Source: a virus
Taxonomy: Duplodnaviria; Heunggongvirae; Uroviricota; Caudoviricetes
Length of the DNA stretch: 22,290 bases
IMG/VR virus record: IMGVR_UViG_2563366854_000001
Location: 1 to 22,290 of that record
Direction: 5' to 3' (one strand)
Positions 3,603 to 9,641 of this stretch are shown in pieces (position 1 is the first letter of the stretch; each line of letters starts with the position of its first letter). The notes under the pieces are model-generated. The model saw only the letters and a program-made list of their open reading frames with translations. It was not told where the DNA came from and did not search any database. A program made the position numbers and the translations under genes.

Positions 3603-3965
3603 TTAACGACCTGCTGCGCGGAGTTTTCCGTCAGGTTCACCGGCAAGAGTCAGTAATTGTCCCTGGTCTTCCTGCAGAATAGTCAGGCGACCACCGCGAT
3701 TGACATACATCGGCGTTTCGGTGGTGTCTTCTTCGGAAATTTTCCCGCGGTTAGTTGGGCGAACATATGAGAGTTTGTGTTTGATTTTCACACGGTTCTC
3801 ATCAAACGGTTCGATTTCCAGATTGAGTGAGACCTTCCCTTTGGTTTTCGTGTTCATCACACCGGAAGCGACCTCACTGAGAACTGCGCCGATTTTGGTT
3901 TCAAATACGCCGCCGTCCAGCTCCCCGATAAATGCCTGCACATCAGTACTGCGTTCGCTAGCCAT
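3603..3965 (-). CDS. Hypothetical phage protein (YfdP-like by size and position)
   Basis: Start at internal Met MASERSTD (GAGGAG-N8-ATG at 3963-3965); 120 aa. The longer 182-aa ORF upstream of this Met lies in GC-rich non-coding-looking sequence. Confidence 0.6.
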   Translation of the reverse strand: MASERSTDVQAFIGELDGGVFETKIGAVLSEVASGVMNTKTKGKVSLNLEIEPFDENRVKIKHKLSYVRPTNRGKISEEDTTETPMYVNRGGRLTILQEDQGQLLTLAGEPDGKLRAAGR

Positions 3966-4426
3966 TTTGCTGCTCCTCATCATATCGACCCTGCAAGGTC
4001 GGTTGGTTTCTCCACAAAACAGAGAAGAACACCTGCGGTGGCAGCCGCCCGGATGGATTGGGTTATGAGCCCGTCGTCCGGTGATGCTCTTCTCTGTTTT
4101 GTAAAAAGAGCGGTGCCAGCCGGAAGCAAGTGTACAAACTGGTACCGCCAAAGCAGTGGCTGTTGTGGTGCCGGGTGCCTCCCGGTGCCTGGCGAAGGTT
4201 GCACACCAGGCGGGTGGGTATCCACAGAAGGTCGACTGTCAGCCTCAACCTTAACCCGCGTGCGCTGAGCCGCATTCACCACAACGCTAAGGATTCTCTC
4301 TGGTTGAAAATACTTAGCTGTTATGTGCCTGCTTTTAGCCACATCAGGCGAGGTGGACCTGGTTATTCCCCAACAACAAGGATTCGGTTAATCTTGATAC
4401 CCCCAATAACATGGTGATTATTTAAG
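3966..4426. promoter_or_regulatory. GC-rich ORF-free divergent intergenic region with a long inverted repeat; candidate divergent promoters and/or structured RNA
   Basis: All frames carry overlapping junk-like ORFs; 17-bp inverted repeat (4015-4031 vs 4085-4101, one mismatch) enclosing a 53-nt GC-rich segment; flanked by divergently transcribed genes. Confidence 0.3.
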
Positions 4427-4930
4427 ATGGACAAATTTGATAGAAGTGCACAAAGGCAGTTGTTACAAATACTGTATGATGCTCATCCTTATGAAATTTC
4501 TGATGATGCGTTGCAGTCTGTTCGTGACGCATTTGGAGATGATAATGTCCTAATTTCGAACTTAATTTATCTCGAAGAACATGGCTTGATTAAGAATGCT
4601 CTTGATTATTACTTGGATGGCATAAATATAAATATTCCTGAATTAAGAATTACTAAAGATGGAATTGATTTCATTCGTGATGATGGAGGTCTTAAAGCTA
4701 TTCTTGGGATTATGACAATAAGATTGCATGATGAGACTCTCTGTGAACTTGAACGTATCATCAATAGTTCTACTTCTGCCACGACTGAAGATAAGAAGAA
4801 ATTACTCTCTCAGCTTCGAACGCTTCCTGCCGACGCCATAAAACAGCTGACGATTCGATTACTTGGTCAGGGGCTTGACCATCTGCCGGACGTATTTCAC
4901 GTAATTCAAAAAGCCCTCCATTCTCTGTAA
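4427..4930 (+). CDS. Hypothetical protein, putative N-terminal winged-helix domain (AT-rich accessory gene)
   Basis: 167-aa ORF starting at ATG 4427; AT-rich codon usage unlike flanking genes; motifs LIYLEEHGLIKN and ITKDGIDFI resemble wHTH recognition helix and wing. Confidence 0.6.
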   Translation: MDKFDRSAQRQLLQILYDAHPYEISDDALQSVRDAFGDDNVLISNLIYLEEHGLIKNALDYYLDGININIPELRITKDGIDFIRDDGGLKAILGIMTIRLHDETLCELERIINSSTSATTEDKKKLLSQLRTLPADAIKQLTIRLLGQGLDHLPDVFHVIQKALHSL

Positions 4931-5108
4931 ATTCTGATTCTGGTCGGATTAGACAGAATCGTCCCCATCCGACCTGCTTACTAAGTAGAATCCAGAATTC
5001 GTCTTGTTGGTTGGTGCTGATAAAAAATCCATTAGGATGAACGTAAGCACAGAATATGACCATAGAACCCTCTTTTGTTACGGGGATACTAAGATTGTTA
5101 AAGAGCTA

Positions 5109-5131
5109 AGCGTCCTGTAGGGCGCTTTTTT
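5109..5131 (+). terminator. Rho-independent terminator-like hairpin
   Basis: AGCGTCC-TGTA-GGGCGCT (7-bp stem with one G-U pair) followed by TTTTTT; about 180 nt downstream of the 4427..4930 stop. Confidence 0.5.
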
Positions 5132-5216
5132 GTTGCTAACGAATCATCCGGTCATTCATACGCCACCGGCGGCTACTTCGTGGGCGTCCTGCCTGTCCGT
5201 GATAGCTTACATTATG

Positions 5217-5288
5217 TTGCTACTTAAAGTAGCAAAAATCAACAACAAAAAGTAGATATTTGTTGTTGTCTATGATTTTTCTATAATT
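5217..5288. promoter_or_regulatory. Operator-like palindromes plus a sigma70-like plus-strand promoter
   Basis: Near-perfect palindrome TTGCTACTT-A-AAGTAGCAA (5217-5235), related to the 13-bp motif repeated next to cI/cro; second inverted repeat AACAACAAA-N9-TTTGTTGTT (5241-5267); TTGTTG (5260-5265), 16-nt spacer, TATAAT (5282-5287). Confidence 0.4.
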
Positions 5289-5426: not shown

Positions 5427-5446
5427 GCCCGGTTATGCGGCCGGGC
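5427..5446 (-). terminator. Hairpin immediately downstream of the ParA-like gene (candidate terminator)
   Basis: GCCCGG-N8-CCGGGC; on the minus-strand RNA it is followed by UUUACUCUUCUUUCU; begins 8 nt after the ParA-like stop. Confidence 0.4.
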
Positions 5447-6700: not shown

Positions 6701-7462
6701 CTAAAGCCGGTTGTATTTAATTGATTCGTGTATCAATGCTTTGCCCATAACATAAAGTTGATCTTGGGACTTCTCATCAATGTACCATTTCTCATAGGCT
6801 GGATTATCCGAAAGAACGGCGAGTTTGTTGCCTTGCATTTGTAGACGTTTAACGTGGAACGTCTTACCATAAACGAAAGAGTAAACACCATCAGTTTGGA
6901 AGTTGCGAACAGAAATGTCGACAAACAGTCGATCTCCGGAAACTAGAGTAGGGGACATGCTGTCGCCATTTACAGTCATAACTTTAATATCATCTTGAGA
7001 ACGATTACCGAAAAGAGAACGGGCATGCTCTGTTGTGAACTCAATGGCGTAGAGCACATCAACATAGTCTGAAAGCATATAGGTTCCAGGTCCTGCGCTA
7101 ACGCTAAGATCCAAAACTTCTATCCTGTATACATCGGGTTTTGTTGGATTGGGGATGCTTGCCATTTCCTTACATCCTTCTCTCTCGCCAACACCATATT
7201 CTAAATATGAAGCTGATACCCCCAGAGCCAATGCAAGTTTATTCATGACAGAGGCACGAGGCTTCGCAGCGCCGATTGTGTATCGCCGCGCCATTTCATA
7301 TGTAACGCCCACAAGACTTTTGAGTTGGGTGACAGAAATTCCCTTGTTTGTCATTAGCTCGTTTAGTCTCTTGGCGAAATCTGGATACTTCTGTTCTTCT
7401 ACCATAGGTAGAAGGTTACTCGCATCACATACGCTAGTCATTTCTATTTTAAGTAGTTGCAT
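6701..7462 (-). CDS. cI-like prophage repressor (XRE-type HTH plus S24 LexA-like peptidase domain)
   Basis: HTH LMTNKGISVTQLKSLVGVTYEMARRY; Ala-Gly cleavage-site-like SAGPG; S24 motifs VNGDSMSPTL and KRL. Start is ambiguous (7462, 7441 or 7405) with no strong SD, so it may be leaderless. Confidence 0.85.
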   Translation of the reverse strand: MQLLKIEMTSVCDASNLLPMVEEQKYPDFAKRLNELMTNKGISVTQLKSLVGVTYEMARRYTIGAAKPRASVMNKLALALGVSASYLEYGVGEREGCKEMASIPNPTKPDVYRIEVLDLSVSAGPGTYMLSDYVDVLYAIEFTTEHARSLFGNRSQDDIKVMTVNGDSMSPTLVSGDRLFVDISVRNFQTDGVYSFVYGKTFHVKRLQMQGNKLAVLSDNPAYEKWYIDEKSQDQLYVMGKALIHESIKYNRL

Positions 7463-8707: not shown

Positions 8708-9641
8708 TAAATTAACCGGCTATGTATGGGATGGTTGCGCTGCATCAGGCATGAAATTATCCAGCGTGGCAATTATGGCCCGCCTGGCTGATTTCAGTAA
8801 TGACGAAGGTGTGTGCTGGCCATCAATTGAAACCATTGCCCGCCAGATTGGCGCGGGGATGAGTACCGTCAGAACGGCTATCGCACGGCTGGAAGCAGAA
8901 GGCTGGTTAACGCGTAGGGCGCGTCGCCAGGGTAACCGCAATGCGTCGAATGTTTATCAGCTTAACGTTGCGAAGCTTCAGGCAGCGGCATTTTCTCAAC
9001 TGTCAGATTCTGACCCGTCAAAATCTGACGCATCAAAATCTGACCCGTCAAAATTTGATGCGTCGAAATCTGGCAAAAAAGCGGGTTTTCACCCGTCAGA
9101 ATCTGGTGGGGATCCGTCAGTAAAATCAAAACATGATCCGTCAGATAAAAAAACTTCTCGTCCGGACGCTTCGCAACCGGACACGCAGACGGCTGAACAG
9201 GATTTTTTAACTCGCCATCCTGATGCGGTTGTATTCAGCCCTAAAAAGCGCCAGTGGGGGACGCAGGATGATTTGACCTGCGCACAGTGGCTCTGGAAAA
9301 AAATCATCGCCCTGTACGAGCATGCCGCCGAATGTGACGGCGAGGTGGTTCGTCCCAAAGAACCGAACTGGATAGCCTGGGCAAACGAAATTCGCCTGAT
9401 GTGTGTGCAGGATGGTCGTACTCATAAACAAATCTGCGAGATGTACAGCCGCGTCAGTCGCGATCCGTTCTGGTGCCGTAACGTGCTCAGCCCGTCGAAG
9501 CTGCGGGAAAAATGGGATGAGCTTTCCCTGCGCTTATCGCCGTCCGTCAGCACGTACACCGAAAAACGCGAAGACCCGTACTTCAAAGCCAGTTACGACA
9601 ACGTGGACTACAGCCAGATCCCGGCAGGATTCAGGGGGTGA
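8700..9641 (+). CDS. Replication initiator, lambda O-like
   Basis: 313 aa; N-terminal HTH-like region; internal low-complexity linker encoded by tandem DNA repeats (iterons), as in lambda O; GAGG 6 nt upstream of ATG. Confidence 0.75.
   Translation: MSTKLTGYVWDGCAASGMKLSSVAIMARLADFSNDEGVCWPSIETIARQIGAGMSTVRTAIARLEAEGWLTRRARRQGNRNASNVYQLNVAKLQAAAFSQLSDSDPSKSDASKSDPSKFDASKSGKKAGFHPSESGGDPSVKSKHDPSDKKTSRPDASQPDTQTAEQDFLTRHPDAVVFSPKKRQWGTQDDLTCAQWLWKKIIALYEHAAECDGEVVRPKEPNWIAWANEIRLMCVQDGRTHKQICEMYSRVSRDPFWCRNVLSPSKLREKWDELSLRLSPSVSTYTEKREDPYFKASYDNVDYSQIPAGFRG
9000..9150. repeat. Iteron array: candidate phage origin of replication inside the O-like gene
   Basis: At least five tandem units of about 15 bp (consensus near CCGTCAAAATCTGAC) at 9001-9074, further degenerate copies to about 9145, followed by an A-rich tract (GATAAAAAAA). 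Confidence 0.6.

Follow-up and report, generated by a model that had tools for sequence, protein, structure and literature searches.

The GC-rich spacer at positions 3966–4426 of the 22,290-nt prophage sequence analyzed here (the window) is non-coding; what is conserved in it is a minus-strand RNA structure lying immediately 5′ of yfdP. It contains four minus-strand modules: an STnc100-like domain, an intrinsic terminator (T1), a three-way-junction RNA (3WJ) of ∼100 nt, and a small hairpin followed by a Shine-Dalgarno sequence. The 3WJ is a well-supported and widespread RNA motif, undescribed and unannotated, which sits in a modular phage leader of known general kind. As an explanation of the whole region we lean, with modest confidence, toward a gate on early-left transcription, set by the terminator, with a cis-acting leader element downstream of it.

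The window is a lambdoid prophage integrated at a tRNA-Arg gene in E. coli, and its sequence is identical to that in strain NCTC86. The early-left operon (yfdT, a phage protein gene, yfdR, yfdQ, and yfdP) lies on the minus strand and is of the type found in the SfV/ST64B/CPS-53 phage group. Its first conserved gene is yfdP (3603–3965, minus strand, ATG at 3965), identified from the RefSeq annotation of the identical locus and from its match to phrog_204 (E = 1e-49), with the Shine-Dalgarno sequence GAGGAG at 3978–3973. A reading of this stretch made from the sequence only had placed the spacer after the last early-left gene; since transcription runs leftward, the spacer lies 5′ of yfdP, upstream of the first conserved gene of the operon. 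To the right of the spacer are a 167-aa island gene (4427–4930, plus strand, phrog_3983) and then, on the minus strand, a ParA-family gene and an XRE-family (cI-like) repressor gene, from which a cro-like gene diverges. The description of the spacer as GC-rich was accurate, with a GC content of 0.55–0.59 across 3900–4300 compared with 0.33–0.39 in the right-hand island.

Matches to the spacer occur in 2782 of 5426 complete E. coli genomes (around half) and in temperate phages of many enterobacterial genera, including the Shigella serotype-converting phages SfII, SfIV, and SfV, Salmonella phage ST64B, and Stx2c phages. RefSeq records carry no annotation over it, and some phage records have hypothetical ORFs across it. 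BLASTN comparison showed that the conserved part of the spacer tracks the early operon, not the island: the yfdP-proximal 213–391 nt travel with yfdP into mEp460, Stx2c phages, and SfV despite differing upstream sequence. The mosaic junction with the island is at the right edge of the spacer (∼4410–4426). The proposal of a recombination scar is not supported as the explanation of the spacer; the segment is under structural selection. The conserved element belongs to the head of the operon, neither to yfdP nor to the island.

The 17-bp inverted repeat reported within the spacer (4015–4031 and 4085–4101) is real and longer than claimed. With at most one mismatch allowed, the longest repeat is 18 bp, compared with a maximum of 13 in 200 dinucleotide-preserving shuffles; the reported 17-bp repeat lies within 25-nt arms (4014–4038 and 4078–4102) of 84% complementarity. 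On the minus strand the repeat forms P1 (∼4102–4083 and 4033–4014), a helix of 20 contiguous pairs that closes the 3WJ (4107–4006) and reaches 25 pairs if the T1 U-run (4107–4103) pairs with GGAGA (4013–4009). The sub-hairpins suspected in the enclosed segment do form, as P2 (4081–4049), which has a large and nearly invariant loop, and P3 (4048–4035), a variable hairpin.

Related loci were gathered from relatives of YfdP (one genome per species) and from viral contigs containing the core motif, yielding 72 distinct sequences that were reduced to 34 diverse representatives (alignment A1). The 3WJ is present in Escherichia/Shigella, Salmonella (ST64B), Mangrovibacter, Enterobacter, Atlantibacter, Leclercia, Superficieibacter, Kosakonia, Phytobacter, Scandinavium, and Pseudocitrobacter, among other genera. 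RNAalifold recovered P1, P2, and P3 from the 34 aligned sequences. Standard pairs filled 98.1% of the paired cells of A1, vs. 91.8% in shuffled alignments and 41–60% when pairing partners were slid, and compensatory changes were present at 12 of the 34 base pairs; none of 500 shuffles reached the observed value on any measure. A model built from A1 (R1) scored 108.8 bits on the minus strand of the window, where it has a single copy, and 37 bits on the plus strand; across 87 loci it gave 59 full-length matches, at 81–121 bits. The spacer itself folds to −178.3 kcal/mol on the minus strand (z = −4.43) and to −167.4 kcal/mol on the plus strand (z = −2.37), and conserved G-U pairs would become A-C mismatches on the opposite strand. 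The compensatory changes and the strand asymmetry together indicate selection on RNA pairing. The earlier suggestion of a structured non-coding RNA is thus strongly supported by covariation, strand-specific model scores, and minus-strand folding (z = −4.4), with the amendment that the structure is not a single RNA and instead constitutes a cis-encoded operon leader with several modules. No family in Rfam 15 matches the 3WJ, even at E-values up to 10; literal searches of the literature for the 3WJ motif sequences returned nothing, and those on yfdP and on ST64B small RNAs yielded nothing relevant.

In most loci the 3WJ precedes yfdP, and in others (L034, L057, L082, L084, L091, and L143) it precedes unrelated first genes. 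A short form, consisting of P2 and P3 on a P1 of only ∼6 bp, was found in L151 on the opposite strand and 8.6 kb away, directly after a terminator and ∼110 nt before a holin-like gene beginning MKM; this site is a late-operon leader. Similar short forms occur in L035, L052, and L072, the last of these also after a terminator and just upstream of an ORF likewise beginning MKM. The full-length P1 is a near-perfect duplex of the length (∼20 bp or more) expected of an RNase III hairpin. The short forms, with only ∼6 bp, keep the conserved P2/P3 core all the same, so that the core must have a role other than RNase III processing. A purely structural role offers no explanation for the near-invariant P2 loop, and the core probably binds a conserved factor. 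The 3WJ has the size of an aptamer and lies 5′ of a gene, as a riboswitch would; the genes downstream of it, among them yfdP, other early genes, and a holin, are not related to one another, and no conserved alternative pairing of the 3WJ with a ribosome-binding site or terminator was found.

Several identities were considered and set aside. A Nus-factor site in the 3′ arm of P1 was rejected. The arm is boxA-like in most relatives, where it resembles UGCUCUUU, yet it lies within a helix, covaries (GCUCUU to GCCCUU), and reads GUUCUU (GUUCUUC) in the window. A hammerhead or other ribozyme was discarded, the junction having almost no unpaired conserved bases and no Rfam match. The P2 loop can form five base pairs with the start-codon or Shine-Dalgarno region in some loci, but this pairing is not conserved, and a closing helix P0 (GUAGUC upstream of T1 with ACUAAC downstream of P1) shows no covariation. 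PasB is located in a structural-gene operon and is therefore not this element.

Terminator T1 (4149–4103, minus strand) consists of a hairpin at 4149–4110, formed by GGCGGUACCAG and CUGGCACCGC, followed by UCUUUUU, and it adjoins the 5′ arm of P1. It appears in the minimum-free-energy fold and has the shape of an intrinsic terminator, a GC-rich hairpin with an immediate U-run on the transcribed strand. An automated terminator scan missed it because the loop limit of the scan was 8 nt. Among 84 distinct upstream contexts in relatives, 80 have a GC-rich hairpin (−15 to −33 kcal/mol) followed, 0–5 nt from its end, by a run of 5–8 T that adjoins P1 at this same position. At least six unrelated stem sequences serve as the terminator before the 3WJ in these contexts, and such an exchange of non-homologous hairpins at one fixed site points to termination itself as the selected property. 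The T1 copy in the window carries an A-C mismatch in its stem and is predicted at −17.8 kcal/mol, vs. −22.5 kcal/mol in near-identical relatives. An ops-like sequence in T1, GGCGGTAC, was set aside, a key position being mismatched.

Divergent promoters, also proposed for the spacer, are mostly not supported. A consensus scan found no sigma-70-like site on its minus strand, and we therefore read the spacer as internal to a PL transcript; on the plus strand the scan returned one candidate promoter-like site, TTGATA-16-GATTAT (4394–4421), which adjoins the ATG (4427) of the 167-aa island gene. The candidate PL lies at ∼5205–5240 on the minus strand, with a −10 element CATAAT at 5216–5211 and an operator at 5220–5232 that repeats, with one mismatch, the cI/cro-region operator CTATTTTAAGTAG (two copies, at 7444 and 7467). 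Downstream of it on the minus strand are a PL-proximal RNA that we term stem A (5196–5140), a hairpin at 5126–5109, and a perfect rrn-type boxA, GCUCUUUAACAA (5106–5095). Stem A is nearly invariant across genera and its inner hairpin covaries. The hairpin between stem A and boxA can also be read as the plus-strand terminator of the convergent island gene. A strict version of the stem A motif precedes the 3WJ in 61 of 111 contexts (55%), at a median distance of 930 nt, and 18 loci contain the boxA 12-mer, in every case on the same strand and 0.75–1.45 kb 5′ of the 3WJ. In ST64B the order is a repressor gene, its own terminator, operators and PL, and a 650-nt leader; the leader contains a first terminator, a P1-like hairpin, an STnc100-like domain, T1, and the 3WJ, and its first ∼57 nt are 96% identical to window positions 5196–5140. 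Within 3966–4426 there is no lambda-type nut site (boxA GCUCUUUA, boxB, and a cognate N), and the perfect boxA lies outside the spacer.

This anatomy suggests that the early-left genes are gated by a conserved PL-proximal RNA with an rrn-type boxA, by a terminator acting as the gate, and by an RNA element that follows it. Leftward transcription would begin at the candidate PL, ∼1.2 kb upstream, pass the putative nut- or put-like site formed by the conserved RNA and the perfect boxA, cross the island, enter the spacer, make the STnc100-like domain, and meet T1. T1 would serve as a gate, as tL1 does in lambda, so that unmodified RNA polymerase would stop there and free a short RNA ending in the T1 hairpin, insulating the early-left lytic genes in the lysogen; that RNA could be an STnc100-like small RNA. 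Polymerase made termination-resistant at the PL-proximal site would read through T1, and the 100-nt 3WJ would be present only in the read-through transcripts, where the 20–25-bp P1 helix would take up the terminator U-run and flanking sequence. There the 3WJ would act in cis on the mRNA, with P1 as a double-strand-specific (RNase III-type) processing and 5′-stabilizing site that separates the ∼1.2-kb leader from the coding mRNA, and the P2 loop as a predicted docking site for a conserved host factor. If correct, the account bears on how early-left genes are gated in the N-less lambdoid phages of this group.

The lambda PL leader, with its nutL site, terminator tL1, and RNase III hairpin in the N leader, is among the closest known parallels to the leader as a whole. 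Both have a long untranslated early-left leader, a boxA site near PL, an intrinsic terminator as gate (a predicted one in the case of T1) to the delayed-early genes, and, immediately before the ribosome-binding site of the first gene, a long hairpin. Unlike lambda, the window has no identifiable gene for N or for an N-like protein (neither small ORF matches Pfam) and no counterpart on the rightward operon; its boxA has the rrn consensus and comes after its hairpin rather than before, and the gene-proximal hairpin is a three-way junction with a near-invariant loop.

Some observations run against this gating account. A search for a second copy of the 3WJ, stem A, or boxA on the rightward operon found none, leaving no nut- or put-like partner there, in which respect the prophage departs from lambda and HK022. 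The strict stem A motif is upstream in only 55% of 3WJ contexts, and stem A has no BLAST similarity to the HK022 putL/PL region. The stem mismatch of T1 in the window, the dual reading of the boxA-adjacent hairpin, the ∼6-bp P1 of the short forms, and the near-invariance of the P2 loop belong to the same list.

The STnc100-like domain (4283–4164, minus strand) comprises four hairpins closed by UGUGGUG and CACCACA. It matches Rfam family RF02076 (STnc100) at 35.6 bits (E = 5.5e-6, model positions 31–147 of 206), below the gathering score of 47 that defines membership. This sub-threshold match was the only notable one when the window was scanned against Rfam at E-values up to 10; no family reached its gathering threshold in the window, and STnc100 did not reach it in 16 related loci either. 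In an alignment of 16 sequences (A3) the domain varies in the middle but not in its 5′-terminal 30 nt or 3′-terminal 25 nt, with the closing helix kept through U-A to U-G changes; the case for the predicted structure is thermodynamic, together with the partial Rfam match, and does not come from covariation. The domain has the closing helix and the terminal hairpin CCGGGAGGCACCCGG with an intrinsic terminator after them, as judged by alignment to the RF02076 model, by comparison with Stx phage Min27, and from A3.

STnc100 and PasD are reported to be prophage small RNAs with base-pairing targets (bioRxiv 10.64898/2026.05.13.724894), and with them the domain shares a prophage-borne multi-hairpin architecture, a UGGUG...CACCA-type closing helix, and a 3′ hairpin CCGGGAGGCACCCGG followed by an intrinsic terminator. 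It differs in its central hairpins, which are unrelated, and in its position in the early-left leader, between PL and yfdP, vs. the late region near Q, stx, and lysis genes; moreover, it covers only ∼120 of the 461 nt of the spacer. At the canonical locus in Min27, STnc100 lies after stx2B, where the homologous domain is followed by its own terminator and no 3WJ is nearby. The domain is found in 32 of 111 contexts with T1 and the 3WJ and is missing from most; in Phytobacter a true tRNA gene fills its slot. One could suppose that the region chiefly yields an independent small RNA of the STnc100/PasD type that acts in trans, made from the domain and T1 under its own promoter, the remainder being incidental. 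The partial Rfam match, the domain-then-terminator arrangement of canonical STnc100, and the base-pairing targets reported for STnc100 and PasD speak for this. We nonetheless consider it rather unlikely: the match falls short of the gathering score, the minus strand has no promoter-like site upstream, and this reading would leave the 3WJ, the more strongly conserved element, unexplained. A terminated or processed RNA would in any case fit the terminator-gate account, and to that extent the small RNA is no true alternative to it.

The apex of P2, CGGGCUCAUAACCC (4073–4060, minus strand), has three G-C pairs and the loop CUCAUAA, and matches, at all 14 bases, the anticodon stem-loop of the E. 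coli initiator tRNA (metZ). The longest substring shared with metZ is these 14 nt; in 2000 shuffles the longest was 13 nt, reached once. The 14-mer is kept in 17 of the 34 representatives of A1 and CUCAU in 33 of 34. We take this sequence resemblance as a lead rather than a mechanism. Taken further, the 3WJ or the P2 hairpin could be a functional mimic of the initiator-tRNA anticodon arm that engages a host component recognizing tRNA-fMet, either acting in cis on how translation of the first gene is initiated or serving as a decoy. Candidate partners would be the 30S P site with IF3, MetRS, or an anticodon nuclease such as VapC (Shigella, Salmonella). VapC cleaves initiator tRNA. Apart from the 14-base identity, including the three G-C pairs, and the near-universal CUCAU, the idea gains from P3 loops that are often anticodon-loop-like (CUUCCUAA, ACUCCUAA) and from the true tRNA gene in the neighboring slot in Phytobacter.

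Against mimicry, the equivalents of tRNA positions 37 and 38 vary (AA, UA, UC), the stem is down to two G-C pairs in 6 of 34 members, and L029, which has no such loop, still scores 86 bits. Neither ARAGORN nor the Rfam tRNA model calls the element, the latter giving no match over 3800–4600 at E-values up to 10, and the resemblance to a tRNA extends only to the 14 nt of the anticodon arm. Conserved pairing to the start-codon region was looked for and not found. The likeness was also noticed post hoc, with a chance probability of ∼1e-4 per tRNA and ∼4e-3 over all tRNAs, as estimated from sequence lengths and in agreement with the shuffles. We judge functional mimicry unlikely, and equally doubtful the broader proposition that the 3WJ represents a new class of phage cis-RNA that copies the initiator-tRNA anticodon arm and follows the gating terminators of early and late operons. 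Were that proposition true, antiterminated transcripts alone would display the 3WJ, which would dock a tRNA-fMet-recognizing host component, such as the 30S P site with IF3, MetRS, or an anticodon nuclease belonging to a toxin-antitoxin or defense system, and so couple the lytic program of the phage to translation initiation or host defense.

HK022, an N-less lambdoid phage, has put RNAs of two stems and ∼70 nt right after PL (PMC9378689). The window shares with it a conserved RNA immediately downstream of PL, a likeness that applies to stem A (5196–5140) and not to the spacer; the 3WJ differs in following a terminator, in being a ∼100-nt three-way junction, and in having no PR-side partner. 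A put-like action of the 3WJ, the STnc100-like domain, or both on RNA polymerase, promoting processivity over the rest of a long operon, would agree with the near-invariance across genera that so conserved a partner as RNA polymerase would lead one to expect, with the position of the elements at the head of long operons (early-left and late), and with the lack of a Pfam match that would identify an N-like protein in either small ORF. It seems to us quite improbable. The 3WJ lies downstream of T1 and thus cannot suppress it, the STnc100-like domain is in only 32 of the 111 T1 and 3WJ contexts, and late operons have a known regulator in the Q-type antiterminator, with quuD annotated in the window. 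The two-stem form of HK022 put, its location upstream of the terminators that it suppresses, and homology to putL or putR (compared for stem A) were not found, leaving no match in sequence or architecture.

The spacer had been called ORF-free, which is not strictly correct, as ORFs of 120, 70, 95, and 76 aa cross it; the substance of the claim stands, in that none of the four has a Pfam match and the frames are broken or shifted in relatives. A stop codon interrupts the sense frame in 10 of the 34 relatives in the 3WJ alignment, a 1-nt deletion falls in the most conserved core in 6 of 34, element lengths modulo 3 are distributed 16/12/6 over the 34 members, and the conserved 3′ arm is used in all three frames among members. 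No reading frame conserved across the relatives was found, as a protein-coding gene would have. Short parts of the translated ORFs match the PHROG profiles phrog_33599 (minus strand) and phrog_3651 (plus strand), which cover the same ∼100 nt on opposite strands; these entries most likely derive from ORFs called across the conserved RNA. That the spacer is a decayed or small protein gene, or a recombination linker at a module boundary kept only by horizontal exchange, as these two PHROG matches and the mosaic junction at its right edge might suggest, is largely refuted and highly improbable given the opposite strands of the PHROGs, the broken frames despite conserved nucleotides, and the compensatory changes and strand asymmetry that mark selection on RNA pairing. 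Recognizing the leader RNA removes false genes from annotation and adds a well-supported new RNA motif.

The remaining parts of the spacer are smaller. Its upstream end (4426 to ∼4320, minus strand) is less conserved and contains a small hairpin at 4356–4339. A further minus-strand hairpin, H1 (GCUAAG...CUUAGC, 4286–4318), corresponds to inverted repeat I3, appears in the minimum-free-energy fold, and is followed by GUUGUGGUGAAU. In relatives the position of H1 is filled by a long P1-like or 3WJ-like hairpin, and other contigs have a 3WJ-like hairpin directly 5′ of GUUGUGGUGAAU and the STnc100-like domain. At the other end, the tail GUGGAGAAAC (4015–4006, minus strand) is conserved across genera and is kept in L008, where T1 and the 3WJ are absent. 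The small hairpin CGACC-UUGCAG-GGUCG (4001–3986, minus strand), just 5′ of the Shine-Dalgarno sequence, is also conserved across genera, and hairpins with UUGCAG-type loops recur before different first genes. Compared across loci, the leader parts are shuffled modules of one toolkit, of which Rfam covers one piece only; STnc100 is thereby tied to a larger set of leader modules that includes a terminator, a long hairpin, the motif GUUGUGGNGAA, and the domain. The host metY-nusA-infB leader runs from a tRNA through terminators and an RNase III hairpin to its genes. The phage leader has a similar order, in layout only, of a tRNA or tRNA-like RNA, an intrinsic terminator, a long hairpin, and genes, and in Phytobacter the first of these is a real tRNA.

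On the minus strand, the segment at 5095–5240 carries, in this order, a candidate early-left promoter (PL) with an OR-type operator (5220–5232), a 57-nt near-invariant RNA whose inner hairpin covaries (5196–5140), a second hairpin (5126–5109), and a perfect rrn-type boxA, GCUCUUUAACAA (5106–5095). Taken as a whole, the arrangement resembles a nut or put site, and we treat it as a candidate for one. No N protein was recognisable in the window's phage, and the rightward operon has no counterpart of this PL-proximal RNA/boxA site. Directly 3′ of the ParA-family gene, a terminator-like hairpin (GCCCGG...CCGGGC, then TTTACTCTTC; 5427–5446, minus strand) fits the end of the repressor–ParA immunity transcript, just ahead of PL.

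An unannotated 97-aa ORF (4770–5063, minus strand) lies just downstream of the boxA and is convergent with the 167-aa gene of phrog_3983 (4427–4930, plus strand), the 3′ ends of the two overlapping by ∼160 nt. Both are kept in the related Mangrovibacter locus, with 57% and 60% amino-acid identity and an unchanged overlap; they are a conserved convergent pair inserted into the PL leader. A promoter-like site, TTGATA-16-GATTAT, was also seen on the plus strand within 4394–4427, ending 5 nt ahead of the ATG of the 167-aa gene, the mRNA of which would be leaderless or almost so if this site were used.

Two PHROG families match translations of the conserved RNA downstream in the leader, phrog_33599 on the minus strand (3980–4342) and phrog_3651 on the plus strand (4038–4268). 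One conserved RNA segment is shared by families on opposite strands, and both appear to have arisen from false ORF predictions in phage genome entries.

The loop of terminator T1 in many relatives holds a conserved Shine–Dalgarno-like GGAGGA followed by GAUAAUGUUCUG or GUGUUCUG (L002, which is Salmonella ST64B, at ∼4165–4105; L006, L022, L025, L028, and L030), and the T1 hairpin of these relatives thus encloses a start codon. The reading frame downstream of that codon is not conserved among them, and the window's own T1 does not have this feature. In the relatives, the loop could serve translation-sensitive attenuation.

Just 5′ of T1, the Phytobacter locus has a tRNA gene (L018, 2722–2800; tRNA-Ile with anticodon AAT by ARAGORN, 52.8 bits to the Rfam tRNA model) in the exact slot that the STnc100-like domain occupies in the window. 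The closing helix of that domain is acceptor-like, and its last hairpin is stacked straight onto this helix.

The junction RNA, the three-way junction of the leader, also occurs in shortened form in L151, L072, L052, and L035, where it follows a terminator directly. In L151 (12006–12060, plus strand), the locus whose context was examined in detail, it lies ∼110 nt 5′ of a holin-like gene starting MKM and is part of a late-operon leader.

In K-12-type CPS-53 (L005 and L012, 2740–3000), iteron-like repeats, GACGGGTCAGATTTTGATGCGTCAGATTTTGAC, stand in place of the entire leader 5′ of yfdP. A palindromic repeat in the window (9021–9068) is similar to them; its match to the junction-RNA model (17 bits) is weak and at chance level. 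The rightward arm of ST64B (6732–6920) carries isrK (64 bits) adjoining a C4 antisense RNA (80 bits), which together are a P1/P7-type immunity module.
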